A DNA stretch of 64,000 nt. Source: Candidatus Nomurabacteria bacterium (GTDB taxonomy: Bacteria; Patescibacteriota; Minisyncoccia; Phycocordibacterales; UBA9973). The stretch is taken from positions 28,579 through 92,578 of the forward strand of contig JAHFNJ010000003.1 of the NCBI GenBank assembly GCA_023267375.1, in the 5' to 3' direction. Position numbers and translations under genes: made by a program. This document shows positions 8,344 through 58,760 of this stretch, one piece after another; positions within the stretch are counted from its first letter, which is position 1, and the number at the start of each line of letters is the position of its first letter. The notes under the pieces were generated by a model. The model did not search any database. It saw only the letters and a list, made by a program, of their open reading frames with translations, and had not been told where the DNA came from.

Positions 8344-8730
8344 TTATTTAAGTGTGACCTTTCCTCCCGCCTCTTCAATCTTCTTCTTCGCATCTTCTGC
8401 TTCAGCTTTCTTCATACCTGTTTTAAGCATAGAAGGAGCATTGTCAACGAGATCCTTTGCTTCCTTAAGACCCAAACCAAGCATTTCCTTAACTACTTTC
8501 ATCACGCCGATTTTCTGATCGCCAGATGAAGTAAGTTCAACGTCAAAACTGTCTTTCTCTTCAGCTGCAGGACCAGCTGCAGGACCAGCGACAGCAACTG
8601 CTTGTGCTGATACGCCGAATTTTACTTCAAGCACTTTTACAAGTTCGTGCAAATCAAGCACAGACATTCCTTCAATCTTATCAACGAGTTCCTTGAATTT
8701 TGCAGGAACTTCTACTTTTGTTTCTTCCAT
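8344..8730 (-). CDS. rplL: 50S ribosomal protein L7/L12
   Basis: 128 aa, Ala/Pro-rich hinge plus C-terminal domain '[15 protein letters not shown]…[21 protein letters not shown]'. Confidence 0.9.
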
Positions 8731-8846
8731 AATTTTTTAGTATGTTAGTAAATTAGTAAGTTAGTATGCTAGATGAATGCATTTTGCATTTTCTAGATTA
8801 CTAGTTTACCAGCTTACTAAATTACTTTGATTTAATAATTTGTAAT

Positions 8847-9335
8847 TTACACTCCCTTATCCGCAATTGCTTTCAAACCAACAACCAATCCTTGAATTGG
8901 CGAGTTGATAAGATTGACGAACATTCCGCGAAGCGTATGCATCGATGGAATCATTGCAATAGCAATCATTTCATCTTTTGCTTTATATGCTCCGTCAAAA
9001 ATACCGCCGACAATTGCAATTGCATCTTTGTGTTCCTTTTGGAACGCGTACACTTCACGTGCTGGAGCAAGTAAATCTGCGCCATAAGCAACAGCAACTT
9101 CACCATCAAGCGAAGGCATTTCACCACTAACTCCTTTTGTTGCGAGAGCGCGCTTCATGAGCGTCTTCTTAGCAACACGCAAACCTACTCCTCCTTCGCG
9201 CAATTTTGAACGAAGTGCCATAGTGTTTGCTACTGAAAGTCCGTGAAAATTTACAAAGACTGCTGAGTTCGCACCGGCAAAAAGGGTGTCGAGCTCTTTT
9301 ACTGTTTCTGCCTTTTTCTGTTTAGTAACTGGCAT
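8847..9335 (-). CDS. rplJ: 50S ribosomal protein L10
   Basis: 162 aa, immediately upstream of rplL in the conserved order; L10-like sequence. Confidence 0.85.
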   Translation of the reverse strand: MPVTKQKKAETVKELDTLFAGANSAVFVNFHGLSVANTMALRSKLREGGVGLRVAKKTLMKRALATKGVSGEMPSLDGEVAVAYGADLLAPAREVYAFQKEHKDAIAIVGGIFDGAYKAKDEMIAIAMIPSMHTLRGMFVNLINSPIQGLVVGLKAIADKGV

Positions 9336-11288: not shown

Positions 11289-14200
11289 TTATTGATGCAG
11301 CCCAGCGCTTCCGCACGAATGATTGATCAATCCACGAGTGATTGGACCAACCAATCCATCTTGTATGGTACCGAGGAATGCCTGCATTCTCTTAATAGCA
11401 CCATCTGTCAACGGACCAATGATTCCATCGATCGGTCCTGGATTAAACCCAAGACGCTGCATGTGAGTCTGCAGAATTGCTGCTTCGGTCACGATACCTC
11501 CAGTGTAAGAATTAAATTCTCCATTCTTTGACGGAGCACGTAAGTTTTGAGTAAGAATCAAATCTGCAGAACACTGCCCTGAAGAATCAGAATTTGTTGG
11601 AGTGTTTTGCGATGGAGGGAGAGCTCCGCACGCTTTTCCTGTTGTTGAACTAAATAGATTTCCAGCAACACAACCCGTATCAGGAGTTGTTGGAGATGCT
11701 ACGGGAGGGGTAACAACACTACTTCCACTACTACTTCCTCCACCTCCTCCACCGCCTGATGACTTATGAATAGTGAAGGTAAATGTCGAAACAGAAGAGG
11801 AAACTGATCCTGGATAACACGCAATTGCTTTGATTGTAGTCGTTGCTGTTACCGATATCGCACTAGAATAGACAGTACCGCTACCACATGTTGGATTTGC
11901 TGGACTTGAACCACTATTGTAACGCATCGAGGAAACACCTGCCCCACCAGAGAGTGTTATTGATTGATTTGAAGTATATGTTCCCGCAACTGGACTTGCA
12001 GTCGGTGCACTTGCTGGACTAATCGTATAGGCAAATGTTGCCACTGCCGACTCACCTCCCGTATAACACGCAATCGCTTTGATTGTCTTTGTGGTTGCAA
12101 CAGAGATCGGGAATGTCGTACTTCCAGTCGAACATGTTGGGGTTGTTCCATTTACGGTATAGTGGATACTTGTCGAATCAGTTGCTGAAAGTGTTACGCT
12201 TTGTGTCTCATAGTAGGTGCCTTCTTCCACATCAGTATCAGGAGCAGCAAGCACCCCAGCAACAGTGATCTCATCACTGTCTCCTGTAATACCCGCATCG
12301 CCAAACTTAGTAGCAGTAATCACAATTCCCTCTCCTTCAGCAGTGAAATTTTGTCCAGTAAATGTTTTTGTACCTTCATCTTCTGAAACAAACGTATACG
12401 TGTTCGTAATATTTCCCGCAGTGACAGGATCCATGTCGATAACAAAATGACTTGTATCTGCGGTGGCACCATTATCAGAACTCATGACGTTTCCATATTC
12501 ATCCTCTGCTGTCACTGTCATTGTAAAGTTCTCATTCATCGCGAGTGTCGTTTTTGAAGTTTCAACAGTGTAGTGGTGAAGCGCAGCATGACGCACGGTG
12601 ATAGCTGATTGTGTACCCGTTGCATCTTCATCTTCAGAATCAGTGGCGGTCAATGATTGTTCGCCAGCAGTGTAGAAAATCACTCCATTTTCTCCGCTGA
12701 ACGTCGCCGAACCGTGGTCGCCAACTTGAAAGGCGTAGCTTGTCGGATAGATGCCCGCCTCTTCATCGCTTGAAGAGAAGTTGACCGTGCCAGTGTAATC
12801 TGTTTTTAAGTTGTTATCACTATCATATGCATTCACGGTAAACAAACTTCCTGCTCCAGCCGCAACAGGATCAACTGCGTCGGTGACAGTAAAGTGGTCA
12901 ATTGCACCCAGAGTTACTCCAAGTGTTGTGGTGTCAGAAAGTTCGCCATAGTCAGCAGACACAGTCCACTCTCCAGGAACCTCAGCATAGTAGACATTGT
13001 CATCCCAATCTCCACCTGCCCCACCTTCTATGGATATATCTGAATCATCGGTCACATCACCGATAAAGTTTTCATCTGCATCGTATGCATCAACAGTAAA
13101 TTCTTCACTGTCATCAGCTGAGATTGTGTCACTGTCTGGCGAGAGAACTATATAGCTAGGATCACCAGGATCAACATCCAGCGAGACAGAATCAGAGAGT
13201 TCTCCGTATTCACCGGTCACAGTCCATTCACCAGAAACTTCAGCAGTGTATACATTATCAGTAAATGATCCGCCAGCACCCATCGAAATACTAAAAGTTG
13301 TGTCATCAGTTACTTCATCAATATCATTGCCGTGTGAATCATATGCTTCTGCATGGAATGTTTGCGTATCATCAGCACTGATCGTGGTGTTGTCTGGAGT
13401 AACAATAATATAATCAGCAGTACCAGGACTTACGGTGAGCCCCGTGGTGTCAGTAAGACCGTTGTAATTAGCTTCTATAGTCCACTCCCCAGCATTATCC
13501 GGGTTGTATACATTATCTGTAAATGAGCCACTAGCACCTTCGGAAATAGTAAAGGTTGACTCAGTAGTCACATCCCCTAATGAGTTGTCATATGAATCAA
13601 AAGCCTCAACTGTAAACGTAGCTGTCTCATCAGCGGTAATAGTACTGTCGTTTACAGTAAGAGTAATGTAGTCGTAATCTTCATCGTTGGTAATAACATC
13701 TATTGATGCAGTTTCAGTAACCTCGCTGTCATCTGCTTCAATATCAGCCCCACCCACTACATGACCAGTAAATAGAGCGCCTTTATTATCTACATCAGCA
13801 ACAAGATCACCATCTACGATACCTCCAGTCTTGTTTATGAGCGCCCAATCAACTGCTGGATTTGACACAAAGTTGCCATGCTGGTCTCGATACACTGAAT
13901 ACACATGAATCGATCCGCCTGGATACACATCATCAGAACCAACATCATCAGCATAATAACTATCATTATCATATTCAACATGAAGAGAGTCAGTAGCTCC
14001 AGCTGACACATCAATCCAAACAGAATCACTGTGTCCGCCATAATTTGCAGTAACAAGCCACTCGCCTACCCACTGTGGATTGTATACGTTGTCAGTAAAC
14101 GAACCTCCCGCTCCTTCTGAAATATCAAAGCTTGCATCTCCAGATACGTCCCCGAGATCGTTGTCATACTGGTCGTATGCATGCACTGTAAATGTCGCGA

Positions 14201-14804
14201 GGCCATCTGCTGTAATCGTTGAATCATCAACAGAAAGATTGATGTACCCATAATCTCCAAAACTTCCTTCATCAGGAGTCGTAGTAACAGTATCGCAAGC
14301 AGGCGTCGTATCAACACCTGTCTTTACACAAATTTCTTGATCGTCTACAGAATAGGGATTTCTGATGCCCTGATTTATCTCAAATGAAATGAGTCCGCCA
14401 TTTAAATCGATACTACTATCGAGAGTAATTTTAATCGTGGTTGAATTGAGCCGAACAACAGAAGATACTGGATAGAGCCCCTCATCTTCCCCTTCACCAA
14501 CAGAAATAAATCCATCCCATGCACAACCAGCACTACAGATAACATCCGCCACATCGCCGAGTGAGCCATTGTCGCCATCATTCAAATCGTACCCACCTGG
14601 GAATATAATAGAGATCGTCTTTGTTTTAGTACTGACATCTGTCGTAAATGAAAAATTGTAATCGCTATAATCCCCGACCATAGCATCATCTGCGGAAATC
14701 GTCACATCAGCAATCACCGCTTTTGCACTACGTGCAAAAGAAAGTACTGCCACCATCGAAAGCACAAAGATAGCAGAGAACAGAAAAAACTTTTTATGTA
14801 ACAT
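11289..14804 (-). CDS. Giant secreted surface protein: signal peptide, 5 tandem ~78-aa Ig-like repeats, two CHB_HEX_C-like domains, Gly/Ser linker, C-terminal peptidoglycan-binding domain
   Basis: 1171 aa. Signal 'MLHKKFFLFSAIFVLSMVAVLSFARSAKA'. Repeats 'TI(T/S)AD…TF(T/H)V(E/H)A(Y/F)D…GDV…SEGAGGSFTDNVY…GEWT'. 'TTIKAIACY…TFTFTI' ×2. 'GGGGGGGSSSGSS'. C-terminal 'LGFNPGPIDGIIGPLTDGAIKRMQAFLG…DGLVGPIT' (PG_binding_1-like). Confidence 0.75.
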   Translation of the reverse strand: MLHKKFFLFSAIFVLSMVAVLSFARSAKAVIADVTISADDAMVGDYSDYNFSFTTDVSTKTKTISIIFPGGYDLNDGDNGSLGDVADVICSAGCAWDGFISVGEGEDEGLYPVSSVVRLNSTTIKITLDSSIDLNGGLISFEINQGIRNPYSVDDQEICVKTGVDTTPACDTVTTTPDEGSFGDYGYINLSVDDSTITADGLATFTVHAYDQYDNDLGDVSGDASFDISEGAGGSFTDNVYNPQWVGEWLVTANYGGHSDSVWIDVSAGATDSLHVEYDNDSYYADDVGSDDVYPGGSIHVYSVYRDQHGNFVSNPAVDWALINKTGGIVDGDLVADVDNKGALFTGHVVGGADIEADDSEVTETASIDVITNDEDYDYITLTVNDSTITADETATFTVEAFDSYDNSLGDVTTESTFTISEGASGSFTDNVYNPDNAGEWTIEANYNGLTDTTGLTVSPGTADYIIVTPDNTTISADDTQTFHAEAYDSHGNDIDEVTDDTTFSISMGAGGSFTDNVYTAEVSGEWTVTGEYGELSDSVSLDVDPGDPSYIVLSPDSDTISADDSEEFTVDAYDADENFIGDVTDDSDISIEGGAGGDWDDNVYYAEVPGEWTVSADYGELSDTTTLGVTLGAIDHFTVTDAVDPVAAGAGSLFTVNAYDSDNNLKTDYTGTVNFSSSDEEAGIYPTSYAFQVGDHGSATFSGENGVIFYTAGEQSLTATDSEDEDATGTQSAITVRHAALHHYTVETSKTTLAMNENFTMTVTAEDEYGNVMSSDNGATADTSHFVIDMDPVTAGNITNTYTFVSEDEGTKTFTGQNFTAEGEGIVITATKFGDAGITGDSDEITVAGVLAAPDTDVEEGTYYETQSVTLSATDSTSIHYTVNGTTPTCSTGSTTFPISVATTKTIKAIACYTGGESAVATFAYTISPASAPTASPVAGTYTSNQSITLSGGAGVSSMRYNSGSSPANPTCGSGTVYSSAISVTATTTIKAIACYPGSVSSSVSTFTFTIHKSSGGGGGGGSSSGSSVVTPPVASPTTPDTGCVAGNLFSSTTGKACGALPPSQNTPTNSDSSGQCSADLILTQNLRAPSKNGEFNSYTGGIVTEAAILQTHMQRLGFNPGPIDGIIGPLTDGAIKRMQAFLGTIQDGLVGPITRGLINHSCGSAGLHQ
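12880..14230. repeat. Intragenic tandem repeat array (~234-bp units ×5) encoding the Ig-like repeats
   Basis: Repeated peptide units are visible in the translation; approximate boundaries. Confidence 0.5.
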
Positions 14805-29135: not shown

Positions 29136-31148
29136 TTAAGCATCAAGCGTGTCTGACAAAGTGTCATAGTCGCCTGCTGGAGCTAGATCAAGAGTTTCAT
29201 CAGCGCCAGATCCGTCTGTATTGTAACCAACTTGTGTAAGTTGGAGGTGTACATAGTGACCAGCAGTAATGGTTCCGATCTGTTCAGACATAGTTGCAGT
29301 GAAGGTCTTTGTATCACCTTCATCAACAGTGTAGTAACCAGAGAAATCAGTATCTGAAGCACTTGAAGAAAGTGTTGAAGCAGATTCTGTTCCTGCAGTT
29401 GTTACACTACCAGCAGTTTCATCATACATAGTGTATGAGAGACCACTTGCACCAGCGATAGTTGCACCCTGTTCGATTGCCTTCGGAATGTAGAAGGTAT
29501 CGCCGAACGCACTAACATCGAAGCTTACTTTCCATGCCAACTTGGTGTTTTCACCAGCATTGTTGGTAGTAACGATTGGATTTGAACCAATCACTTTGAA
29601 GTTAGAGACAGTAAGACCTGTTGCGTAGAGCTGCATAGTGTTACCACTTGGAGTTCCACTAACATTACCAATGTCATCGCCAGTATCAGCATCTTCGAAA
29701 TCATTTTCATCGGCTGCTGAAGTAGCGTAGATGGTGTCACTGTTTGCGTAACCACCAGCGTTTTGTGACTTGAATTTGATCTTAACAGTTACTTTCATTG
29801 TATCACCAGCATCAATAACGACGTCGTCGTCTTCAATGTCAGTGAAGTTAAATGTAGTACTTGAATCAGCGTCTGGAGTATCATCGGTTGAGTACGTAGT
29901 ACCATCAATTACGAGTGTGATGTCATCAACGATTTCATCGTTGTCTGAACCACCTGTAGTGATTGTAACTGGGAAGTTATCAATCTTTACATCGCCGCCA
30001 TCAGAATCAGCTTTGATTTTGAAGACTGCAATTGTTTCTGTGGTTGAAGATGTTTCATCAACCTGGAGCGTTCCCGCTGCAGGAGTTGAAGAATCCTTGG
30101 TGATAGTAAGGTCAGAGTTTGCACCTGAAGCTTCAAGTGAGAAACTAGCTGTACCAGTACCATTGTCTACAGTGTTGATGCCAGCACCGTCAACGAAGCG
30201 AAGGCCTGTTGAAGAGTTTGTGTCATCAATGTATACATCCCAATCTTCGCCATCATCAATACCATCGATTGAATCAGTTACGTCAGCAGCAACTGTAAGT
30301 TCAGCGTGTACGCCTTCCTTGAAGTTTGCAGCAAGACCACTCATACGAACGCGGTAGATGCCTGAGCCTGAAGATGTTTCATCCCAGTCAGACTTTGATG
30401 AAGAATCCATAGAACCGAGTTCTTTTGAACCATCCATCAAGTAAACTGTGTCAAAAACTTTCCAAGGCTTAGTCTCATCGTTACCACCATTTGCTTCGAA
30501 TACGATGTCAGCGCGTGTGAGCTGAGCATCAGCATCCTTCACAGTGAATTTGATGGTTGCAACATCTGCCTTTGAAGCACCTTCCTTAATAGAAGTGTCA
30601 TCAGCTGAAGTTGTCTTTACGTTTGAGATTGAAGTTTCGCCACCAGAAAGATTTCCTCCTGATGATGAAGTGTTTGAATCACACTTTGTTCCAGTTGTTG
30701 AACTGTAACCAGCTGTTGATGAACAACCTGCTGGGAGACCTGCTGAAGGACCTGAGTTACAAGCCATACCAGTTGTTGTACTGTAGCCTGAAGCTGAAGT
30801 ACAACCTGCTGGGAAGTTACCTGAAACTGAAGTTCCGCCATTAAGTACTGCCATAGAAGCAGGACCAACAACGCCGTCAGCTGTAAGACCAGCAGCAGCT
30901 TGCCATGCCATAACTGCGGTAGCGGTCTTTTGACCGAATGAACCGTCAGTTACGAGTGCAGGGTTAGCATAACCACCAGCATTCAAGATTTTCTGTAATT
31001 CCATTACTGCTGTGCCGGTTGAACCGACGCGGAGTGTTGGAGGAGTAAATGTATATGCACTTGCTACAGAAGCTGCAGCAAGAACAGCAACAAATACTGC
31101 CAATCCGAACACTGCCTTAGCAGCTTTAGATTTTAGTAAATTACTCAT
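29136..31148 (-). CDS. Secreted surface protein: N-terminal peptidoglycan-binding domain, Cys-containing repeats, Thr/Ser/Asp-rich beta-rich region
   Basis: 670 aa; signal peptide; 'LRVGSTGTAVMELQKILNAGGYANPALVTDGSFGQKTATAVMAWQAAAGLTADGVVGPASM' (PG_binding_1-like); repeats 'AGC(T/S)S(A/T)(S/A)GYS(T/S)TTG'. Confidence 0.65.
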   Translation of the reverse strand: MSNLLKSKAAKAVFGLAVFVAVLAAASVASAYTFTPPTLRVGSTGTAVMELQKILNAGGYANPALVTDGSFGQKTATAVMAWQAAAGLTADGVVGPASMAVLNGGTSVSGNFPAGCTSASGYSTTTGMACNSGPSAGLPAGCSSTAGYSSTTGTKCDSNTSSSGGNLSGGETSISNVKTTSADDTSIKEGASKADVATIKFTVKDADAQLTRADIVFEANGGNDETKPWKVFDTVYLMDGSKELGSMDSSSKSDWDETSSGSGIYRVRMSGLAANFKEGVHAELTVAADVTDSIDGIDDGEDWDVYIDDTNSSTGLRFVDGAGINTVDNGTGTASFSLEASGANSDLTITKDSSTPAAGTLQVDETSSTTETIAVFKIKADSDGGDVKIDNFPVTITTGGSDNDEIVDDITLVIDGTTYSTDDTPDADSSTTFNFTDIEDDDVVIDAGDTMKVTVKIKFKSQNAGGYANSDTIYATSAADENDFEDADTGDDIGNVSGTPSGNTMQLYATGLTVSNFKVIGSNPIVTTNNAGENTKLAWKVSFDVSAFGDTFYIPKAIEQGATIAGASGLSYTMYDETAGSVTTAGTESASTLSSSASDTDFSGYYTVDEGDTKTFTATMSEQIGTITAGHYVHLQLTQVGYNTDGSGADETLDLAPAGDYDTLSDTLDA

Positions 31149-47334: not shown

Positions 47335-49278
47335 TTATCTGACCACTCGTTCAGCGTTCCCAAGAAATGCTGGATCATTTACCAAAAATGTATTGAGTGG
47401 TTTCTTTGAAAAAGAAAATACAGTATTAGTAAAAGTATCTGTTCCGGTCACCGATGTTTCATTTAAGAGAAGTGGGACACTCCCTACTTGGCTATCAGAT
47501 GGAGTAAGTCCAACCTGAAACGATACTTCTCGGGCCGCACCAGAAAAACCAGTGCCTTTCTCTACGGTACCAATCTTCCAATCGATAGTATTGGTTGAAG
47601 GATCATAACTTATATTTTCATTTTTGGGAAATACCATATTCTTCCACTTTACCACAGGTGGCAAAGTAGCCCGAGCATCGGCTTGTACAATACGATTCGC
47701 GGAGTTTGTTACTGTCCAGGTAATAGTATACGTAGATTCTTGTTCGGCTTTTGGTGGCAATGGACCTGTATTGGTGAATGGCCCAGTTGATCGTGAAGCA
47801 TGCGCGACAAGTTGAAAATCAGAATTCATTTTCACCACCTTATGTTCAAAGTTATTTACTTCTTGAACCGTACTACCACCGCTTGGCTCTTGCCCCTTGA
47901 TACTGACATCAATAACGATCTGGGGATTCACTAATGCAATGTTTGAAGAACCAATAAGTGGTAGAGACATGAGAGAAAAATCAACAGTACCAGTCTCCCC
48001 AGGCTCAATACTCGCAAATGAAGGGATTGTGTTACGGTCCCAAATAATTTCGTTGGTAAGAGAATTGTAAAATCCACTCGAGGTCTGCACTCCGGCTTTA
48101 TCAAACGCATTTCCAGATAGTGTTGCATGGATTTCTGCATTCATAATTTGCGTTGATAAATTATTAGACCAAGAAATCTTTCCCCGAATTGGTGATTGCG
48201 CAGAAGCAACTGTCTCCGCTTGGCTATTATCATTGATTGCAAGCTTTGCTTCAAGAAACGGTTTAGTGATCGAAATTGTCTGAAGCACTGAATTATAGAC
48301 AGTTGAAACAATAGGATTGCTGTTAACACTCCCTTCACCTGCATAGAAGTGGAACGATTTGTCTTCCCCACTATCAGCAATAATCGAACCAGTGATCGTA
48401 ATATTCTTTTCCACACCAGGCTCAAGATTACCAAGATCCCACACATTATTTCCGGTGATTGGTCGTGGATCTGATCTTTTAAAAACGAATCCTGGAGGAT
48501 ATTCTCCTTCAAGCACAATCCCCTGAGCAGGCTTCCCTGCATTCAGCGTCGCTTTAATTTTAAGTGTGATATCCTGATTTGCGTTTGCCGTTGTTGGAGC
48601 ATCGACAGAAAGTGTTAGTGGCGCAGAATTAATATTTACCTTATATGCTGTCTCTTTTATAAAAATCGCATTCGAGCCCTTGAGTCGATATTCGAGCGTG
48701 GCTTTGATATCTCGGGTACTTCCCTGTTCACCATAGAGTGTTACCTTCTCAACATCAGTCACCATCTGACCTGCCGCAATGGTGCCGAGCGATTTTCGAA
48801 TACGTACCGTATCAGCAACCACGTTTGGGTCACCACCTCCAGATTTTGGATATTCAATTAATAAGTCAGCACGATCAAGGGCAACGGCATTTTGATTTTT
48901 TATTTCTATTTGTAGTGGTAATTCATCGCCGCCATTCGTAAAAGCATTGCCTAAAATTTTTATATCAATATTTTGCGTTGAAACAGTATTTGTCCCACCC
49001 AAAAACATGTACGCAGCAAACGCCATTGCTGCAACAAAAAAAACGACAGCAACGACAAAAAATTTTTTAAATATAGAAGTTTTTGGCATGTAGTTCATAA
49101 ATTGTGGATGCTCGGTTGATTTCTCTTCCGTCCATGAAGCATTTGATCCGAAAGCAACACGATGTAGAACCCCTGGTCTTTTCCGAGGTACTTTTCGCTC
49201 ATCACTTGAATAGAGTTTCTGTTCAAGTTCCTCTATTGCTTCTGGTTCATGGTCTTCTCGTAAATCGAGTGTTGACAT
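47335..49278 (-). CDS. Large membrane-anchored extracytoplasmic hypothetical protein
   Basis: 647 aa; single N-terminal TM 'FFVVAVVFFVAAMAFAAYMFL'; beta-rich remainder. Confidence 0.5.
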   Translation of the reverse strand: MSTLDLREDHEPEAIEELEQKLYSSDERKVPRKRPGVLHRVAFGSNASWTEEKSTEHPQFMNYMPKTSIFKKFFVVAVVFFVAAMAFAAYMFLGGTNTVSTQNIDIKILGNAFTNGGDELPLQIEIKNQNAVALDRADLLIEYPKSGGGDPNVVADTVRIRKSLGTIAAGQMVTDVEKVTLYGEQGSTRDIKATLEYRLKGSNAIFIKETAYKVNINSAPLTLSVDAPTTANANQDITLKIKATLNAGKPAQGIVLEGEYPPGFVFKRSDPRPITGNNVWDLGNLEPGVEKNITITGSIIADSGEDKSFHFYAGEGSVNSNPIVSTVYNSVLQTISITKPFLEAKLAINDNSQAETVASAQSPIRGKISWSNNLSTQIMNAEIHATLSGNAFDKAGVQTSSGFYNSLTNEIIWDRNTIPSFASIEPGETGTVDFSLMSLPLIGSSNIALVNPQIVIDVSIKGQEPSGGSTVQEVNNFEHKVVKMNSDFQLVAHASRSTGPFTNTGPLPPKAEQESTYTITWTVTNSANRIVQADARATLPPVVKWKNMVFPKNENISYDPSTNTIDWKIGTVEKGTGFSGAAREVSFQVGLTPSDSQVGSVPLLLNETSVTGTDTFTNTVFSFSKKPLNTFLVNDPAFLGNAERVVR

Positions 49279-49336
49279 AGTGAGATTATAGCATAGGCAT
49301 CAATAGTATAAAGATGCCTATGTAATGTTACAAAAC

Positions 49337-49921
49337 TTACAATTGGGTCTCCCGAAGCGATTGATTGATGGCAGTGAGCATTTCGGCTCGCACCTTTGCC
49401 GCTTCCTCTATGAGACGCCCGTCGAGCGGACTTCTGACAAGAGCATCATTTTCTTTGGTGTGTGCCAAGTAACCCAGATGGTACAAAATCCGTAGAACCA
49501 CAACCACCTCAAAATGTTTTAGGTCGGTCGCTGTAAACTTTTTTTCAGAAAGAGCAGTAAATGTTTCCATGAGGTGATCGAACAATGCTTCGTTGGGTGA
49601 TTCCCCGTCATAAAGCCTGCCGACAAGCTTTATTATATTTTTAAAAAGTGGCGCAGTGTCACGCGAGAGCGATAACGAGAGAAAACTAGAAATCGGCTGC
49701 GCAGAAGTCACGCGCCAGACATCACGGCCGCGCACCAAATCGATTTTGGCATACGAAAAATCCTGGAGTGCAAATCGAAGTTTTGATTTTCCATGGCGTA
49801 TCCCCTGTGCGGCCGCGCGCACCATCCCCTCTTCGCGCGTCAAAATCGTCAAGAATTTATTTGCCTCGCCTGTCTCACGAGCATCAAAGATAATTCCAGT
49901 TGTGTGATAGATATGATGCAT
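49337..49921 (-). CDS. recO: DNA repair protein RecO (short form)
   Basis: 194 aa; N-terminal OB fold 'TTGIIFDARETGEANKFLTILTREEGMVRAAAQGIR…SKL'. Confidence 0.6.
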   Translation of the reverse strand: MHHIYHTTGIIFDARETGEANKFLTILTREEGMVRAAAQGIRHGKSKLRFALQDFSYAKIDLVRGRDVWRVTSAQPISSFLSLSLSRDTAPLFKNIIKLVGRLYDGESPNEALFDHLMETFTALSEKKFTATDLKHFEVVVVLRILYHLGYLAHTKENDALVRSPLDGRLIEEAAKVRAEMLTAINQSLRETQL

Positions 49922-50087
49922 AACTATATCCTCTGGTACAAAATATTAAATACGATGTTCATAATTTTTCTCACTTCTCGCCCCGTAGTCAGCTGAGCGC
50001 GCATTCGGCGCGAAGATGTACTACTGGGGTGATAAATGTGGTGCATGGTAGTAAGTACGATAGTGTTACTATTTCTTATTTTAAATA

Positions 50088-51308
50088 TTATTCGATAGAA
50101 ACTTTTTTATCAATAAATTTTTTTTCTTTTATATAATTAAAAAATGTCTTCATATACCCATCCCAAATCGGATCTTTTTCTAAATCAGCCAATGTCTTCC
50201 CTTCTTCTTTAAGCTTATATATATGTTTAACAAACAGATCTTTCACCCCAGCTTCTTCTAAAAGTGACGCGAGGTAGGTATTTTTGTTTAATTCAATTTC
50301 GTAGTCAGTCGCATTTATAGCGTCCCAGTTACGATACAGTTTCCGTAAAGCTGCTCTCTCTTTTTCAAATAATTCCCAATTAAAACTAGGGTTTCGCTCT
50401 TTTAGAAGAATTTCTCCTCGTCTATCTGCTGGCAAATATTTTTTTAAAAAGTCCATCACTGGAATTATTCCTTTTACCACCTTATGCGGCGGGATGCCTG
50501 TCTTTAAAAGTTGTTCCACCTTTTCTTTATTCAGAGTTCCATCTTTATTTAGAAATTGCCACCAAAATTTTGGCCCGGAAGCAAATGATTCTTCTTTTAT
50601 ATTCTGGAAACCAATAGCTTTAGCCAATTTTGTATCGAGCAACCATGATTCACCACTGATTACCGAAACTTGCGGAAAACGATCCACGATAGACGTGGCA
50701 ATTTTTGACATACTCTCTGAAAAAGAAATGGATTCATTGTTACCGTATTTAGTTTCATACAGTGGATCCAGATGAAGCTGCATTACACTACCATATTGCT
50801 GAAACTCAGCGGGTGAATCTTCTGATACATCATCAACAAAAAAACGAATGTTACCTATCGTACCCGAATCGAAGGATAATTCTTGATTATTTTCTGATGT
50901 GTTCTCGGGATGAAGAATCTTGTATTCTTTTGCTTTCTTTTTCTCTTCAAGCAACCAATCCATCGCCTTTTGTTTCCACGTAGCGGGATCAGTGTTATAA
51001 AAATCAATGATTTTATTCAGATTTTGTTCATAAAGACTATCCCATTCACCTTTCTCTTGGTCTCTTTCGTAAGCTGTAATCCACCCTGCAATATCTGCAT
51101 ATCTACTGATAATAAACTTGGGATCAAGTTTCGATGATATTGTTTCGCCCTCAATAGAGATAGTTGTCTCCTCAGGAAACGGGATTTGGCGCTTCAAAAT
51201 GCGATCAGCATATTCTAGCCGAAATTCAGCAAATTTTTCTTGCAAAAGATCTTGATGTTCTTCTAATGACTGCGTTCGTATTGGTTGTGAAATATTCTCT
51301 AAGCTCAT
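50088..51308 (-). CDS. Hypothetical protein (no recognisable domain), carried on a 1.44-kb insert
   Basis: 406-aa clean ORF; SD 'agaggagga' upstream; flanked by a duplicated recO 5' segment. Confidence 0.55.
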   Translation of the reverse strand: MSLENISQPIRTQSLEEHQDLLQEKFAEFRLEYADRILKRQIPFPEETTISIEGETISSKLDPKFIISRYADIAGWITAYERDQEKGEWDSLYEQNLNKIIDFYNTDPATWKQKAMDWLLEEKKKAKEYKILHPENTSENNQELSFDSGTIGNIRFFVDDVSEDSPAEFQQYGSVMQLHLDPLYETKYGNNESISFSESMSKIATSIVDRFPQVSVISGESWLLDTKLAKAIGFQNIKEESFASGPKFWWQFLNKDGTLNKEKVEQLLKTGIPPHKVVKGIIPVMDFLKKYLPADRRGEILLKERNPSFNWELFEKERAALRKLYRNWDAINATDYEIELNKNTYLASLLEEAGVKDLFVKHIYKLKEEGKTLADLEKDPIWDGYMKTFFNYIKEKKFIDKKVSIE

Positions 51309-51314
51309 AGTATT

Positions 51315-51413
51315 TTAGATTTCCTCCTCTCTTTTAATTTCTAATTTTTTTAATACAACTCCTGTCTCGCGAGCATCAAGGATGATACCGGTTGTGTGAT
51401 AAATGTGATGCAT
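51315..51413 (-). pseudogene. Duplicated recO 5' fragment encoding a 32-aa remnant/leader ORF
   Basis: 'MHHIYHTTGIILDARETGVVLKKLEIKREEEI*' against recO 'MHHIYHTTGIIFDARETGEA…'; 53-nt DNA match at 87% identity. Confidence 0.55.
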
Positions 51414-51416
51414 GAA

Positions 51417-51896
51417 TTAATTTGAAGCGTAGGTATGCATTATTATTTTTGCGTAGGTTGCGTAATCACTATCAACTACTTGGAAGAAATATGGCGCATC
51501 AACATGCTGCAGTGGTTGCGTTTTTTCATGAGAGAAACATGGCGCCTTTATTTGCGGATTTGTTGGACAGCCAGTCATCGTATAGAAAATATCAAGACCG
51601 CTCCAAATACACTGGCTACCTGTTGGGCATGGATGGTTGTAGAAACCAGTCACAGTAAACGTCGTTGTATACATCGAATTTGTATCTACAATCGTATATG
51701 TTTCTCCTTGCTTCACCGTCACCGTTTCACCTAAAGTAATAGTTTTTGCTAGGGGGGCAGGAGGCGTAACTACAGTATCTGTTCCCGGTACAGGTGGGAT
51801 GACGGCATTGTTACTATGAATGAGGCCGTAGACAATAACAACAATTGCTATCAAAAAAATACTTACTGATATAATTATTTTTTTATGATTTTTCAT
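51417..51896 (-). CDS. Membrane-anchored hypothetical protein
   Basis: 159 aa; N-terminal TM 'IIISVSIFLIAIVVIVYGLI'. Confidence 0.45.
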   Translation of the reverse strand: MKNHKKIIISVSIFLIAIVVIVYGLIHSNNAVIPPVPGTDTVVTPPAPLAKTITLGETVTVKQGETYTIVDTNSMYTTTFTVTGFYNHPCPTGSQCIWSGLDIFYTMTGCPTNPQIKAPCFSHEKTQPLQHVDAPYFFQVVDSDYATYAKIIMHTYASN

Positions 51897-51910
51897 ACAT
51901 GTAAATGTTC

Positions 51911-52513
51911 CTAGGAATTACCTTTTATATTTTCGACAAGTTCTGGAAATGTTTCTTGGCGAAAGTGGCCACGATCTGAAAAAGTAAGGAGCGTCGCTTC
52001 TGGAAAAACTTTTTTATATTTCAGGGCTTCAGCTGGCAGCACTGCAGTATCATCGTCACTTTGATAGATAAAAATCTTTGGGACTTGGGCAGATACATTT
52101 TCGAGATTCTCTTTGAGTTTAAAATCCCCTAGCGACTCAACCGACTCATCATCAAATGGCGCAGCTACTAAGTGCATACTCTCTATCTTTTTTAGTAAAG
52201 TATTCTCAGAGAGATACTTTGCCAAAAAGATGCCCCCAAGCGAGTGCCCCACAAGTGTCACACCGTCCTGTAAAAATGGGACAATTTTATCAAAAAATAT
52301 TTTCCACTCGAGATACTTCGCATTCATATCATTTGGCATCTCTGGAGTAATAACCTCATATTCAGGCAAATAGTCAGCCAACGTGCGTCGCCATCGTTTT
52401 CGAGTTATCCCCTCAAGAGTCAGTTCATAACTACGCAAAAAAGTAAGGTATGCTTCGTATGTATCAAAAACGTCTCCTCCGTGGATTATTAAAACTTGTT
52501 TCTTTTGGTCCAT
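51911..52513 (-). CDS. Alpha/beta-fold serine hydrolase (YdeN/RBBP9-like)
   Basis: 200 aa; 'VLIIHGG…', nucleophile elbow 'GHSLGG'. Confidence 0.65.
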   Translation of the reverse strand: MDQKKQVLIIHGGDVFDTYEAYLTFLRSYELTLEGITRKRWRRTLADYLPEYEVITPEMPNDMNAKYLEWKIFFDKIVPFLQDGVTLVGHSLGGIFLAKYLSENTLLKKIESMHLVAAPFDDESVESLGDFKLKENLENVSAQVPKIFIYQSDDDTAVLPAEALKYKKVFPEATLLTFSDRGHFRQETFPELVENIKGNS

Positions 52514-52517
52514 AAAT

Positions 52518-53096
52518 TTAGTTAAGTTTTAAAACTGCCTCCAAGACTTCTGGGAGCTCTAAACACTGATTCGTACTCCCGCTGAAATGCCCTCGTCCTG
52601 ATAATATTATAATTTTAGAACCAAGCTTGTCCCTATAGTCATCCACATTATCAAGAGGTACAAATGGATCATTATCAGAAAAAATAGCTACGCTTTTAGG
52701 AAGATGTGTTTTTACTTTTTCAAGACTAAGAGGTGTGGTCATCCATTCTTTTTGAACACTTTGCTCGGCATCATCGCTTCCTATATTCGTCAGTCGTTTA
52801 AAAAATCCTGCAACAAAGACAGCACCACCAACTTGCACTCCCTCAGGTAGGGCTTCCAGATAACGAGCAATAGTCTGACAACCCATACTGTGGCCAACAA
52901 AATACATATTCTCATCAGGAGTAGAAGCAACTTCTTGTAATTTAGGCACCCAATTATGAATGCGGGGAGTCGCTGCATCTGGAAGCTGTGGCACTATCAC
53001 CTCAAAACCTGTTGCTTCAAGTTCTTTTTTTAGCCAAGGAAACCAGCCTTCTTCTGGATACCCGTCCCACCCATGTACTATAAATACTCTTTTCAT
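52518..53096 (-). CDS. Alpha/beta-fold serine hydrolase (YdeN/RBBP9-like), tandem paralog
   Basis: 192 aa; 'VFIVHGWDGYPEEGWFPWL…', 'GHSMGC'. Confidence 0.65.
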   Translation of the reverse strand: MKRVFIVHGWDGYPEEGWFPWLKKELEATGFEVIVPQLPDAATPRIHNWVPKLQEVASTPDENMYFVGHSMGCQTIARYLEALPEGVQVGGAVFVAGFFKRLTNIGSDDAEQSVQKEWMTTPLSLEKVKTHLPKSVAIFSDNDPFVPLDNVDDYRDKLGSKIIILSGRGHFSGSTNQCLELPEVLEAVLKLN

Positions 53097-54942: not shown

Positions 54943-57900
54943 CTACTTTTCAATTGAAATCTCTGCCACACCAGCCTCAACAGAAATATTTTTTGCCGTA
55001 ACCGTTTTCTTGAGTTCGTCGCCAAACGTCGCCGCTAGTTCTTTGTATGAATCTGGGAGCTTAATATTGATGCTGTCGCTTGGCATTAAACCTTTCTGTT
55101 TACGCAAATCTTGAATAGCGCGCACAAGTTCACGGAAATCCCCTTCTTTTTTGAGCTCTGGAGTCATCTCGGGATCAAGTAGGACTTGGTCTTTCAGCGA
55201 ATCACTCTCCACGACTTCTTTCACATTGAGTTCATCTTTTAAAACATCTTTGAAATACGTCTCGAGTTTTATATTTGGCACAGTAACCTTCTGGAGTGGC
55301 TGACGAACAGGAATCCCAGCTTTTTGCCTTTCTTTTAGCCCCATAGATGCGAAGTCCCGAACATTACTCATTTGAGTAATTAATTCTTTTTCCACCTTCC
55401 CACCTTTAGGCCAACTGGAAAGATGCACACTTTCTGTATCTGATTCTGCCCGCAGTTTCAGCCATATATCTTCCGCGGCAAACGGCGCAGCAGGAGCCAT
55501 GATCTGCGCTACTGTTTTAAGCACAAAATAAAGTGTCTGTTTTGCGTCAGCATCCCCTTCTTTGATACGGTCACGTGAACGACGTAAGTACCAAGTAGAA
55601 AGATCATCGATAAAATCTCGAAGTGCACGCACTGGTTCCATAAGTTTGTAACCGTCCAAGCTCTCAGTGGTAAGCGCTACAAGCTGATTAAGTCGAGCAA
55701 GAATCCATTGATCGAGAACATTGCTAGTTTCTAGGTTATAGTTGCTAGTTTCTAGTGAAGGGTCACGATAGAGTTCATAAAATGCCAACACATTGTAGAG
55801 CAAACCGAATACCTGGCGATGCAATTCCATCACTGTTTTCTCATCGTAATTTTTTGAATCCCCTGGCTGGTTCACCGAGTACATCCAAAGGCGCAGTGTA
55901 TCAACACCAAATTTTTCAATCTGGAAAAATGGTTCGACAATGTTACCGATTGACTTCGACATTTTCTTGCCATCTTTATCGAGTAAGTGTCCTAAGCAAA
56001 TCGCATTCTTAAATGGCGTACCGCATTCCATAAGCGTACCGACAGCAAGCAGTGTATAGAACCATCCGCGGGTTTGATCAATAGCTTCAGAAATGAAATC
56101 TGCTGGGTAGCCATGTGATTTTTTGAGCAATCCACTCTTCGGCTGAAAGGTATCTTTGTTTTCAAACGGATAGTGATCTTGGGCAAACGGCATAGAACCA
56201 GAATCAAACCACACATCCATCACTTCTTTTACACGACGAAATTCTTTGCCGTCTTTTTCAAGCACCACTTCATCAATATATGGCCGATGCGGATCAAGCT
56301 CGTAGTTCTCATTGTGCGGAAGTGGGACGAATGGAACATCATAAAAAACAGCATTTTCAATGTAATGAAAATCTTTCTTTCCCCGGATCATATCGAGTGC
56401 CTGCTCAGCACTATACCCATGAGCACCAACGACCATGAGCCAAGCAGGTCCGCCATGGGTCACAATCAAAATATTTTTATTGCTGTATTTTTGTTCTAGC
56501 TCATATAGCAATTCACTTACGCGTTTACGAACATCGCTATATGATTCGCCTCCTGGAAGAACTGCAGAAAAATTATCCGCCGTCTTTGGAAATTTATCAT
56601 GATACTCTTTCCATGTCGTGCCACTAAACGTACCGACACGCATCTCGTGGAGCCGAGCATCCGTACTCACTGATTCCTCAGGCAAGCCAAGAACACCTCG
56701 TACGATATCTGTTGTTTCTTTCGTGCGTATAAACGGTGAGGCAACAATCAAATCTATTTTTTTGTTTTTCAATAACTCTGCCGCTTCTTGTACCTGCGAT
56801 TTTCCATGGTCAGTCAAATGATCGTTTACTGCATCTTGTTTATCGCTGATCAAACCTTGCAAATTATGCTCTGATTCACCGTGACGCATCACGATATAGT
56901 TATTCCCGCTTTTCTTTGTATATTTTTTGAGTGTTTCAAATGAATCAACAACAATGCGCTCGCCATCAGCGTTCTGCCACACTGGCATCGGTGTTCCCCA
57001 GTACCGCTCACGAGAAATCGCCCAGTCTTTCACCTCGCGAATCCACTCGCCGAAACGCCCTTCTTTGATATGAGATGGCTCCCAATTTATCTTTTCATTT
57101 TCAGCGACGAGATCATCCCGAAGCGCCGACATTTTGATGTACCACGAATCGCGTGCGTAGTAGATGAGCGGCGTCTTACAGCGCCAGCAATGTGGATAGC
57201 TGTGCGTGTATTGTTCTTTCGCAAAAAAGTTTCCGTGCTCTTGGAGATATTTCAACACCTCAACAGAAGTCTTGAGACCATTGTCTTCCCTATCTTTTGC
57301 TGGCATTCCCTCGAGACTACCCGTGCCTTTTATAAAATGTCCGGATTCATCAACGAGATGAAATTTCGGCAACCCAACTTTCGAACCAAGCTCGAAGTCG
57401 TCCTGACCGTACATCACGGCTGTGTGCACGATGCCGGTACCATCTTCGGTGTTTACGAAATCTGCCGCGTATACTTTGTATGCGTTTTGTAACTTATCGT
57501 CACCCTTATCCAATTCAGAGAGATATGGATAGAGTGGTTCATATTCCGTGCCACTAAGTTCTTTACCGAAATATCTACCTGATACTTCGTATAAGGTTTT
57601 TTCTGCTCCAGGTTTTGGAGATCCACTAAGAGTCCTTCCAAAAACACCATCACTATTTATTAACTCTAAACCAAAAATTTTATTGACCAAATCCCATGCC
57701 AGGATATAATTTTCTACACCTGAATTGTTTGTAACTTTTACTTTTACATAGTCGATTTTCTCACCCACAGCCAAAGCAACATTCCCAGGCAAGGTCCAAG
57801 GTGTTGTGGTCCATGCAAGAAAATAAGTATTCTCATTTCCGACTACTTTAAATTTCGCGATAACTGACAAATCTTTTACATCTGCATAGCCCTGCGCGAG

Positions 57901-58467
57901 TTCGTGCGACGAAAGGCCAGTTCCACAGCGCGGACACCATGGCACGACTTTGTAATCTTTGTAGAGCAGCCCCCTTTTATCGACATGCGCAAAGACATTC
58001 CAAAGCGATTCAACATAGTTTGTATCAAACGTGTAGTATGCAGATTTTTTATCTACCCAGTAACCGATACGGTCCGTAAATTTTTCCCACTCACCGATAT
58101 ATTCAAAAACAGAATCCTTACATTCTTTATTGAATTGAGCGATACCATACTGTTCGATTTCTTTTTTTGATTTGAGCCCAAGCTTTTTTTCAATCTGAAG
58201 TTCTACTGGTAATCCGTGAGTGTCCCACCCCGCACGTCGTCGTACGTGAAAACCCTGCATCGTTTTATAACGAGGAATGACATCTTTGAATGCGCGTGCT
58301 TCCAAGTGGTGGAGTGCTGGTTTGGCATTGGCTGTTGGTGGACCTTCATAGAACACAAATTCGTCATTGCCAGCATTTCTTTCAACCGACTTTTGAAATA
58401 TATTTTCTTTCTGCCAAAACTCCAAAACCGCTTCTTCTCGAAGCGCTGCTGCTGATTTTTCATTCAT
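54943..58467 (-). CDS. ileS: Isoleucyl-tRNA synthetase with an embedded histidine-phosphatase (PGAM-family) domain
   Basis: '…WDTHGLPVE…WAISRERYWGTPMP… [NYIVMRHGESEHN … ILIVTHGGP] …DVWFDSGSMP…KMSKSIGN…'. Start set at Met 'MNEKS' just after the T-box terminator U-run. Confidence 0.85.
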   Translation of the reverse strand: MNEKSAAALREEAVLEFWQKENIFQKSVERNAGNDEFVFYEGPPTANAKPALHHLEARAFKDVIPRYKTMQGFHVRRRAGWDTHGLPVELQIEKKLGLKSKKEIEQYGIAQFNKECKDSVFEYIGEWEKFTDRIGYWVDKKSAYYTFDTNYVESLWNVFAHVDKRGLLYKDYKVVPWCPRCGTGLSSHELAQGYADVKDLSVIAKFKVVGNENTYFLAWTTTPWTLPGNVALAVGEKIDYVKVKVTNNSGVENYILAWDLVNKIFGLELINSDGVFGRTLSGSPKPGAEKTLYEVSGRYFGKELSGTEYEPLYPYLSELDKGDDKLQNAYKVYAADFVNTEDGTGIVHTAVMYGQDDFELGSKVGLPKFHLVDESGHFIKGTGSLEGMPAKDREDNGLKTSVEVLKYLQEHGNFFAKEQYTHSYPHCWRCKTPLIYYARDSWYIKMSALRDDLVAENEKINWEPSHIKEGRFGEWIREVKDWAISRERYWGTPMPVWQNADGERIVVDSFETLKKYTKKSGNNYIVMRHGESEHNLQGLISDKQDAVNDHLTDHGKSQVQEAAELLKNKKIDLIVASPFIRTKETTDIVRGVLGLPEESVSTDARLHEMRVGTFSGTTWKEYHDKFPKTADNFSAVLPGGESYSDVRKRVSELLYELEQKYSNKNILIVTHGGPAWLMVVGAHGYSAEQALDMIRGKKDFHYIENAVFYDVPFVPLPHNENYELDPHRPYIDEVVLEKDGKEFRRVKEVMDVWFDSGSMPFAQDHYPFENKDTFQPKSGLLKKSHGYPADFISEAIDQTRGWFYTLLAVGTLMECGTPFKNAICLGHLLDKDGKKMSKSIGNIVEPFFQIEKFGVDTLRLWMYSVNQPGDSKNYDEKTVMELHRQVFGLLYNVLAFYELYRDPSLETSNYNLETSNVLDQWILARLNQLVALTTESLDGYKLMEPVRALRDFIDDLSTWYLRRSRDRIKEGDADAKQTLYFVLKTVAQIMAPAAPFAAEDIWLKLRAESDTESVHLSSWPKGGKVEKELITQMSNVRDFASMGLKERQKAGIPVRQPLQKVTVPNIKLETYFKDVLKDELNVKEVVESDSLKDQVLLDPEMTPELKKEGDFRELVRAIQDLRKQKGLMPSDSINIKLPDSYKELAATFGDELKKTVTAKNISVEAGVAEISIEK
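56341..56904 (-). other. Inserted histidine-phosphatase domain within ileS (residues ~543-730)
   Basis: Canonical branch-1 histidine phosphatase signatures 'VMRHGESEHN' and 'VTHGG', ~190 aa, between the IleRS WGTP region and the DVWFDSGS/KMSKS region. Confidence 0.7.
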
Positions 58468-58482
58468 ATTTTTTTCTTGCAT

Positions 58483-58760
58483 AAAAAAAACTCGTCCTCG
58501 CGTAACAATTAATGAATAATTGCAATGCAAGGACGAGTTTCTGCTCGTGGTACCACCTTACTTACTTCTCTTTACCGCTGTATCGGGCTTACCCGCTAGG
58601 ATCTACTCGCCAAATAGCTTTCTGCCTAGAGCCTGCCTGCCAGCAGGCAGGCTCGGAGGTGATTACTCTCCTTAAGCTGTAGTTCCATCATACGAATCAT
58701 CCTAAAAAAAAGCAACCCCATCCGATAAAGGATGGGGCGCAATACTGTTTACTGTGGGAT
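58483..58760 (-). promoter_or_regulatory. T-box riboswitch leader of ileS
   Basis: RNA strand contains T-box consensus 'AAGGUGGUACCACGAG' then terminator 'ACUCGUCCUUGCAUUGC…GCGAGGACGAGU' + U8; UGGU bulge predicts discriminator A, matching the tRNA-Ile in this window. Confidence 0.6.
58703..58738 (-). terminator. Terminator of gene 58766..59455
   Basis: ccccatccgataaaggatgggg plus U-run on the minus strand. Confidence 0.65.

Follow-up and report, generated by a model that had tools for sequence, protein, structure and literature searches.

A probable recombination scar between related Paceibacteria lineages at a recO locus

Three copies of the recO start at one locus

The stretch of DNA analyzed here, to which we refer as the window, comprises 64,000 nucleotides from a Paceibacteria/Nomurabacteria-type Patescibacterium. 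On its minus strand, a functional recO gene (49337..49921, 194 aa) is identified by Pfam RecO_N (E 4.8e-15) and by TIGR00613, whose 66.9 bits exceed the cut-off of 48.7, and searches returned 628 homologues. Reading upstream on the same strand, recO is preceded by a 107-nt non-coding spacer (49922..50028), a gene encoding a protein of 406 aa (50088..51308), a 52-nt leader that would have arrived with that gene (51309..51360), and a 159-aa gene (51417..51896) whose product has an N-terminal hydrophobic segment and no Pfam domain. An Rfam scan of 49200-52000 gave no match, and a promoter and terminator scan returned sites that were not in excess of those in shuffled sequence.

The first 53 nt of recO (copy C, 49869-49921) recur between the 159-aa and 406-aa genes (copy A, 51361..51413), where they form a stump of codons 1-18 that reads as an earlier recO allele and encodes MHHIYHTTGIILDARETG. 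The two are identical at 46/53 positions (87%) in a repeat search of the window. Each copy opens with ATG on the minus strand, that of copy A lying 3 nt past the 159-aa stop; upstream of the ATG similarity is nil, and beyond codon 18 the copies are entirely unlike, with similarity stopping abruptly after GAGACAGG, at 51361. Because similarity begins exactly at the ATG, no upstream leader or promoter was copied, and the suggestion made in an earlier, sequence-only reading of the window, that a capture event had reused the recO promoter and leader, finds no support. The genes neighboring the insert are hydrolases and recO. The GC content of the 406-aa gene is 35.8%, as against 42.7 ± 3.0% for genes of the window; this value carries little information on a foreign origin, as GC is low throughout the variable block.

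Between the 406-aa gene and recO lies yet another copy of the recO start, the third, which was overlooked in the earlier reading. This copy B (ATGCACCACATTTATCAC, 18 nt, 50029..50046) is a stump of codons 1-6 (MHHIYH) of another recO allele. It stops after TATCAC and sits 41 nt past the 406-aa stop, which is the normal place of recO where the 406-aa gene directly precedes it. Copy B matches copy A at 18/19 positions when the C preceding the ATG is counted; it differs from copy A at one site and from copy C at three, all of them third codon positions. Many other lineages, L007 among them, have recO starts with exactly the sequence of copy B. A degenerate MHHIYH pattern has three matches in the window against 0.16 expected, and no other gene-end duplicates of at least 28 nt were found there. 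For the purposes of annotation, copies A and B are pseudogene stumps.

Both stumps open short reading frames. One, of 32 aa (51315..51413), consists of copy A and 14 codons of the putatively imported leader and stops 6 nt ahead of the 406-aa ATG; it and the 406-aa frame are as previously described. The other, of 40 aa (49924..50046), opens at copy B and stops 2 nt before the recO ATG. The 3' end of the 32-aa frame had been proposed to supply the Shine-Dalgarno sequence of the 406-aa gene. A GGAGG motif is indeed present in the part of the frame that does not derive from recO (51323-51327, within the leader), but its distance of 14 nt from the 406-aa ATG is a long spacing. The spacer ahead of recO contains GAGGA 7 nt before the recO ATG and an imperfect G+C-rich hairpin (about 49980-50031) that is not significantly more stable than shuffled sequence (z = -1.7). 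No homologue of the spacer was found in any fetched locus, and it was probably imported along with the present recO 5' end.

The repeat had been considered a possible assembly artefact. Across both junctions the window is matched at 100% identity by two further contigs, one from an ENA MEGAHIT assembly (L001) and one from Logan (L002), giving three agreeing assemblies, which may derive from the same or related samples. The two junctions have no long k-mer in common that could mislead an assembler. Given this absence and the identity of the two contigs, the repeat is not an assembly artefact.

Divergence between copies A and C is concentrated at synonymous sites, as had been noted from the sequence alone. 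Frame comparison places six of the seven differences at third codon positions, the remaining one being F12L. With nt 54, the third base of codon 18, included, there are eight differences over 18 codons, 7/8 of them synonymous, and a codon-aware comparison (Nei-Gojobori) bears out the bias, with pS 0.60 and pN 0.024. The probability that eight random substitutions would change at most one amino acid is about 1e-4 to 3e-4. The pattern supports the view that copies A and C behave as alleles whose divergence would have taken place in separate lineages, under selection on the protein.

If the recO start had been duplicated within the genome, by slippage, by tandem duplication, or by a local transposition that moved the 406-aa gene, and the unused copy had then decayed neutrally, this would be the simplest origin for a nearby direct repeat, and in one of the nearest relatives by recO (L009) a member of the 406-aa family lies two genes further upstream in the same cluster. 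Decay predicts changes at random codon positions, however, and the observed differences are nearly all synonymous (p about 1e-4 to 1e-2, by mixture); decay in situ needs at least 4/8 of the changes to have fallen in the selected copy for p > 0.05. Moreover, the family-majority residue at position 12, L, sits in the stump, so the F12L replacement arose in the working recO and not in the stump. Residues 8-18 of copy A are specific to the window's lineage. We regard an origin within the genome as extremely improbable.

A GNAT-like family upstream of recO and two gene orders

The 406-aa protein had been described as lacking a recognizable domain and as the product of an orphan accessory or effector-type cassette. 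The first description stands as far as profile searches go: none of 21 family members (the 406-aa protein and 20 relatives) matched Pfam, and NCBIfam and PDB-sequence searches with the same set returned no family. At the level of structure, the central fold appears to be like that of the GNAT (Gcn5-related N-acetyltransferase) superfamily, flanked by large helical N- and C-terminal extensions; the protein has no sequence-level match in Pfam, NCBIfam, or PDB. The second description is not supported, given this fold and the size and genomic setting of the family, which has 235 cluster representatives at 50% clustering. The homologues nearest to the window's protein are 37-38% identical to it.

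Genes of this family lie directly upstream of recO in at least ten other lineages. They end 0-40 nt before recO in L020, L054, L076, L067, L131, L132, L136, L137, and L141 and also adjoin it in L135 and L148; in the recO loci sampled, among those listed, abutment is seen in only about 4/111. The 406-aa gene is the usual immediate upstream neighbor of recO in many Paceibacteria, and it is a conserved recO neighbor, neither an orphan nor a mobile cassette nor a foreign effector. A test of vertical versus horizontal descent by identity matrices gave a result that is suggestive only, since the family evolves faster than recO and the window's copy is 27-38% identical to all others. We flag this family here as an uncharacterized, widespread GNAT-like family tightly linked to recO.

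A different gene order is found with the 159-aa gene. Its homologues P0279 (67% identical) and P0280 (63%) lie 3 nt upstream of the recO start in two metagenomes (L155 and L156), and the window junction TCAAATTAA-TTC-ATG corresponds to TCAAATTAG-CTT-ATG in L155 and TCAAATTAG-TGT-ATG in L156. Judging from these junctions, the 159-aa gene is the native upstream neighbor of recO in what would be the recipient order. As its homologues abut recO in both metagenomes, copy A sits in a native junction. With both native orders known, the window can be seen to combine 159aa-recO with 406aa-recO; the two meet within the older recO, where a non-homologous junction falls at 51360/51361. The nearest recO to that of the window is 68% identical, and the insert is absent from the nearest relatives by recO, L007, L008, and L009, which have one recO start each. 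The comparison of relatives and the allele-like divergence of the copies bear out one of the explanations offered earlier, namely that recombination with a related strain brought in a 5' segment of recO, both parental orders being present in other genomes.

A second stump and an exchanged segment in other lineages

Among the 111 recO-like starts listed in 120 genome loci, we found a second copy of the recO start only in L067; the resulting stump frequency of about 1% is a rough figure drawn from the genome loci listed. No second copy occurs at any of 24 metagenome loci with the family gene, and the repeat is absent from 10/12 family-gene loci examined. Three candidates were rejected as stumps: L097 is a recO with an internal deletion or frameshift, L096 reflects masked Ns, and a 13/18 match upstream of the family gene in L132 is an unrelated palindromic intergenic repeat.

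In L067, the order is 132aa - recO stump - 413-aa homologue - recO. The 413-aa protein is 35% identical to the 406-aa protein (E 6e-69), and the family of the 132-aa gene abuts recO in nine other lineages. The stump comprises 35 nt, of which 34/35 are identical to the true recO start, and stops after GATAATAT; its reading frame ends 5 nt before the following ATG.

Its near-twin L131 shares 97-100% identity with it over the stretch that begins with the 413-aa ATG and closes with the end of a 630-aa gene, and departs from L067 immediately upstream of that ATG. The patch (406aa-recO-630aa) spans ~3.7 kb at ~99% identity, with its left edge exactly at the scar. Its flanks are only 60-83% identical (83% in IleRS-HD and <70% downstream), and the two genomes carry different genes between IleRS-HD and the patch. 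At the end of the 630-aa gene, identity drops gradually (95, 89, 71, and 61%) within homologous sequence. The contrast between a 99% patch and poorly matching flanks indicates that a segment of ~3.7 kb moved between lineages and that its left edge is the scar. This observation also bears on duplication within the genome: the L067 copies differ at only 1/35 nt, which fits a local duplication, but the segment adjoining the scar is 99% identical to that of another lineage while its flanks reach at most 83%.

The arrangement could alternatively be of Campbell type, with a circularized fragment carrying the 406-aa gene and a short recO 5' piece entering through one homologous crossover somewhere in the initial 53 nt of recO. 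The topology fits exactly, in that direct repeats of the homologous segment lie on both sides of the insert, as in Campbell integration generally. A duplicated homologous segment is the hallmark of single crossovers with circular molecules, and in E. coli the duplication, rather than deletion, of a homologous locus was traced to such an event (PMC3240628). A mirror-image scar in L131, where a 140-aa gene is enclosed by a perfect 28-nt repeat that spans the 3' end of the HD gene and the next start codon, fits as well. Campbell integration differs from what is seen here, however, in that the repeats are only 18-53 nt long and diverged and that the exchanged DNA of the replicate reaches well past the repeat: the L067/L131 patch runs about 2.4 kb beyond it, through recO and the 630-aa gene, which an insertion confined to the 1.29 kb between the repeats would not lead one to expect. 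Diverged homology of 35-53 nt is also a poor substrate for a single crossover, and copy B would require a second such event on 18 nt of homology. We consider integration of a circle unlikely.

A mobile cassette or integrative element with the recO 5' end as its target and a replacement recO start as part of its cargo would account for the finding of the same family flanked by recO-start repeats in two distant genomes, and the two stacked stumps in the window resemble tandem accretion at an att site. In L144 and L147, direct repeats next to tRNA-Gln likewise flank distant members of the family. Islands at gene ends, with att duplication at the termini of tRNA or protein genes, show the same diverged duplicate termini, restoration of the gene by the incoming copy, and stacked remnants. 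The present locus differs from these in having no recombinase and no fixed crossover site, and its "insert" is a conserved chromosomal neighbor of recO. No integrase, transposase, or nuclease is encoded; the only gene in the insert is the GNAT-like one, without a Pfam or NCBIfam match. A fixed core site is lacking, since the junctions fall at nt 18 of recO for copy B, at nt 35 for L067, and at nt 53/54 for copy A. For the most part, the family is a stable syntenic neighbor of recO, 10 of 12 loci lacking the repeat, and the patch exchanged in L067 takes in recO and the next gene. An element of this kind is in our judgment highly unlikely. A transposon or insertion sequence with target-site duplication was rejected, as no transposase is present and the repeats, 18-53 nt long and synonymously diverged, begin with the ATG; no terminal inverted repeats at the insert ends appear among the inverted repeats listed.

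The upstream copy might instead have been kept as a functional leader frame that relays ribosomes from the 159-aa to the 406-aa gene, a possibility also raised earlier. The short distances on both sides are what this would predict: the stump ATG follows closely on the upstream stop, and the stump frames in the window and in L067 all end within 6 nt of the next start. In shuffled spacers, the p values are 0.073 for the 32-aa and 0.037 for the 40-aa frame (product about 0.003, in a post hoc test). Selection for a leader leaves the origin of the copy and its lineage-specific codons unexplained, however, and selection on frame length would not keep the peptide sequence. Such a frame is absent from 10/10 other loci with the family gene upstream of recO (nine directly adjacent and L064 with another gene between), for which reason it cannot account for the existence of the copy, and recO has a GAGGA of its own. 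We give a selected leader very little credence as an explanation; a secondary role of the stump frames in translational coupling may exist, on weak and post hoc grounds.

Probable recombination between related lineages

The locus is probably a recombination scar between related Paceibacteria lineages that had different genes ahead of recO, as judged from the gene orders and the codons of the repeats. On the best reading, DNA of a diverged relative would have been imported at least twice at the recO locus, one junction being homologous and the other illegitimate. One parent would have had the order 159aa - 3 nt - recO and the other 406aa - about 40 nt - recO. A segment of the second type, comprising the leader, the 406-aa gene, the recO 5' end, and possibly more, would have been joined into the first type, by homology in or beyond recO on one side and, on the other, without homology, at nt 53/54 of the recO already in place. 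The resident recO start would thereby persist as the 53-nt stump (copy A), the imported recO becoming the working gene. Copy B would record a second event of like type, in the window's lineage or in the donor, that brought the present 5' end of recO together with the hairpin spacer. Non-homologous junctions, marked by an abrupt end of similarity, are seen at copy A, copy B, and the L067 stump; the junction on the homologous side is observed in the L067/L131 replicate, in the end of the 630-aa gene. A source in a different lineage is backed by the synonymous-biased divergence of the copies and by the L067/L131 patch. Only short stumps are likely to persist, since long direct repeats would delete the insert and a junction further upstream would harm the tightly abutting upstream gene.

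The product has the form that homology-facilitated illegitimate recombination (HFIR) following DNA uptake would give, as would the equivalent process of break repair with foreign DNA as the template; for the window, the direction of transfer and the route of uptake are what we infer. HFIR is defined by one homologous end and an illegitimate join at 3-10 bp of microhomology (PMC3240628, PMC6382021). As described in Acinetobacter baylyi, Streptococcus pneumoniae, and Pseudomonas stutzeri, it likewise has one homologous and one non-homologous side, and the likeness extends to the gain of about 1 kb of foreign DNA beside a homologous anchor, with a diverged relative as the donor. Published HFIR products usually show deletion, not flanking duplication (PMC3240628). 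In the present case the anchor gene itself holds the illegitimate junction, near its start, leaving a short gene-start stump as a direct repeat, and the event is a natural fossil in uncultured Patescibacteria, known from sequence rather than experiment. Natural competence has been shown in Saccharibacteria (PMC10633639), and only there, not in Paceibacteria.

Both recO-start scars that we found involve the 406-aa family, which could hint at more than random recombination (n = 2). A more specific proposal is that a 406aa-recO(-630/647aa) module spreads preferentially between Paceibacteria, with the extremely conserved first 20 nt of recO (MHHIYHT) serving as a short homology arm and the stump reused as a relay frame that couples the incoming gene to the host operon. 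The occurrence of both scars in one family, the ending of stump frames beside the next start, and the mirror-image scar at the other border of the variable region would fit this proposal, which we consider improbable. If true, it would amount to a cassette-like route of gene insertion without a dedicated recombinase.

The probable recombination event is of a known kind and leaves current concepts unchanged. Together, the window and the L067/L131 pair would represent a natural exchange of gene order between diverged Patescibacteria at base-pair resolution, with the parental orders still observable. This fits the idea that small-genome, competence-equipped bacteria may remodel their variable regions with DNA from relatives.

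Three copies of the recO start

Every gene of the locus is carried on the minus strand of the window. In gene order, IleRS (1195 aa; 54943-58530) comes first, followed by an ASCH/HAD protein, a GDSL lipase, two tandem paralogous Ser_hydrolases (200 and 192 aa; 51911-53096), a 159-aa gene (51417-51896), a 32-aa ORF (51315-51413), the 406-aa gene (50088-51308), recO (49337-49921), a 647-aa gene, and GlyRS. A repeat search of the window identified a 53-nt direct repeat, identical at 46 of 53 positions, formed by the first 53 nt of recO (49869-49921, copy C) and a recO-start stump (51361-51413, copy A). ATG opens both copies, and their comparison detected similarity neither upstream of the ATG nor beyond codon 18. 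Six of the seven differences fall on third codon positions, the remaining one being F12L; with nt 54 included, seven of eight are synonymous (pS 0.60, pN 0.024 over 18 codons), and eight random substitutions would yield at most one amino-acid change with a probability of approximately 1e-4 to 3e-4. The diverged, nearly all-synonymous repeat described in the sequence-only reading is real and significant, and it is no assembly artefact, since ENA MEGAHIT and Logan assemblies are 100% identical to the window over both junctions.

That reading recognized these two copies and overlooked a third, ATGCACCACATTTATCAC (50029-50046, copy B), located 41 nt past the 406-aa stop and 107 nt ahead of the true recO ATG. 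One site separates copy B from copy A and three separate it from copy C, all of them third positions. MHHIYHT is almost invariant across recO of the clade, and residues 8-18 are lineage-specific; those of copy A match the residues of the window's own recO. To judge from codon positions, copies A and C differ in the way expected of alleles that evolved apart, each in its own lineage, under purifying selection. Duplication of the recO start in situ is disfavored, because a stump decaying in place is not expected to give this pattern. Elsewhere in the window, two diverged in-gene tandem repeats, one of 74 nt at 72% identity (30663-30814, within ORF 29136-31148) and one of 53 nt at 77% identity (11808-12109, within ORF 11289-14804), are probably repeated protein domains.

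Native gene orders and the 406-aa family

By its recO homologues, the window belongs to Patescibacteria of Paceibacteria/Nomurabacteria type; our homologue search found no close relative of the genome, with identity to the nearest recO reaching only 68%. These nearest recO relatives have a single recO start, abutted by a hydrolase or other gene. IleRS and recO-647aa-GlyRS constitute a conserved frame, and the stretch between IleRS and recO differs by lineage, with HD, Ser_hydrolase, metallo-beta-lactamase-fold, HAD, NUDIX-like, and 406-aa family genes present in combinations. The window bears two Ser_hydrolase paralogues (51911-53096, minus strand) versus one in relatives, which points to more remodeling of this variable block; the 200-aa paralogue shares 61% identity with the hydrolase next to recO in locus L009. 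The window IleRS contains a His_Phos_1 (histidine-phosphatase, RHGE motif) domain inside the synthetase core, an architecture also recorded for the L008 orthologue (3191-6682). L008, alone among relatives, has an 85-aa GIY-YIG domain gene (8628-8885) between recO and a 637-aa gene. In Parcubacteria GW2011_GWB1_37_13 (L097, reverse strand, match at oriented position 1479), recO breaks off behind codon 23 and continues in a different ORF (MSSKLRFVLQDF...), through an internal deletion or frameshift or through a sequencing error.

Metagenome contigs L155 and L156 carry homologues of the 159-aa gene (67% and 63% identical), in each case with a recO start 3 nt downstream. The stop-spacer-ATG of these contigs aligns with the 159aa/copy A junction of the window, so copy A is a recO start that keeps its native context. 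In L155 (882-1457), recO is only 41% identical to that of the window despite the closeness of its neighbor, and L009 recO is 60% identical; this is another sign that the genes either side of the 159aa/recO junction have different histories. In L157, a bAvd and reverse-transcriptase pair (5132-6490), the signature of a diversity-generating retroelement, lies ~4 kb from a homologue of the 159-aa gene.

The 406-aa gene had been taken for an orphan, a description refuted by an exhaustive HMMER search that recovered 235 cluster representatives of its family (198 with E <= 1e-10). The protein has no match in Pfam, NCBIfam, or PDB sequences and no sign of a nuclease or recombinase. Its AlphaFold model (pLDDT 79.8) has a central alpha/beta domain, predicted to be GNAT-like, and the gene is a conserved neighbor of recO; invariant residues of the family are H179, S221-W222, W249, and Q251. 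From the end of the family gene to the recO ATG is 0-40 nt in L020, L054, L076, L067, L131, L132, L136, L137, and L141, and the two genes likewise adjoin in L135 and L148. This makes 406aa-recO a native order of common occurrence, with copy B falling exactly at its recO-start position. This linkage of the ~400-aa family spans several Paceibacteria clades, and its tightness suggests a functional tie to recombination or repair. Distant family members in L144 (2196-2418 / 3934-4175) and L147 (5367-5524 / 6895-7042) are flanked by near-identical non-coding direct repeats of 60-224 nt, comprising a terminator-like hairpin and a GGTTCGAATCC tRNA-like motif. In L144, tRNA-Gln (2132-2203) overlaps with its 3' end the beginning of the upstream repeat; in L147, the sole tRNA-Gln found (2971-3042) is ~2.3 kb upstream of the repeats.

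A second scar and an exchanged patch

Species-representative genomes were scanned with a degenerate pattern, which matched at least 120 loci; 111 of those listed have recO-like starts. Among the matches listed, only L067 (Paceibacterota CTOTU14249) has two copies, a rough scar frequency of ~1% of recO loci. Its gene order is HD, Ser_hydrolase, 132-aa gene, recO stump, 413-aa homologue, recO. The 35-nt stump matches the true start at 34 positions, the single difference being synonymous; the 413-aa and 406-aa proteins share 35% identity (E 6e-69), and the 132-aa family directly abuts recO in nine other lineages. The same 406-aa family occurs at both recO-start scars found, by chance or otherwise.

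Metagenome contig L131 serves as a control. Its identity with L067 is 97-100% over ~3.7 kb that begin at the 413-aa ATG, include recO, and close with the 630-aa gene; identity is 83% over IleRS-HD and <70% past this patch. Wholly different genes, and no recO stump, lie between HD and the family gene of L131. A near-identical patch within diverged flanks indicates that three genes moved recently between two otherwise diverged lineages. The left edge of the patch in L067 coincides exactly with the scar, and the resident recO was replaced save for its first 35 nt. L131 also contains a perfect 28-nt direct repeat, AAGGATTTATGATAAAATAAATGTATGA (1746-1773 / 2217-2244), either side of a 140-aa NUDIX-like gene; it comprises the last codons of the HD gene, the stop, a spacer, and the next start codon, and is a mirror-image insertion scar at the opposite border of the variable block.

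Probable recombination between lineages at recO

Import by recombination, among the origins first proposed for the repeat, is favored by the codon pattern, the native order in L155/L156, and the L067/L131 patch. In the window, the 159aa-recO and 406aa-recO orders, both natural, meet at recO nt 53/54 in a non-homologous join. Homology-facilitated illegitimate recombination (HFIR) is defined by a homologous end paired with an illegitimate junction (PMC3240628; PMC6382021), and the window arrangement has the form of such a product; break repair copied from foreign DNA would yield the same product. Copy B and its hairpin spacer testify to a further replacement at the recO 5' end. A single crossover with a circular fragment produces the same topology (PMC3240628), but the 18-nt copy B and a patch in L067 that runs past the repeat are hard to reconcile with it. 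A site-specific element at the recO start is disfavored by the lack of a recombinase, the varying junction positions (nt 18, 35, and 53), and the stable synteny of the 406-aa family, 10 of 12 loci examined having no repeat. A selected leader ORF, also put forward initially, leaves the origin of the copy unexplained; it may have a secondary role in translational coupling, as stump-initiated ORFs stop 6 and 2 nt short of the start codon that follows (p = 0.073 and 0.037 versus shuffled spacers, in a post hoc test).

Saccharibacteria have been shown to be naturally competent (PMC10633639), and competence genes are reported to be common in Patescibacteria (PMC12455944); we infer DNA uptake as the route for the window event. 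The recO start would mark the border between conserved and variable blocks. A junction placed more upstream would probably harm the gene that abuts recO, and longer stumps would be lost through repeat-mediated deletion. The repeat is best explained as a scar of inter-lineage recombination, a known kind of event that is documented unusually cleanly at this locus.
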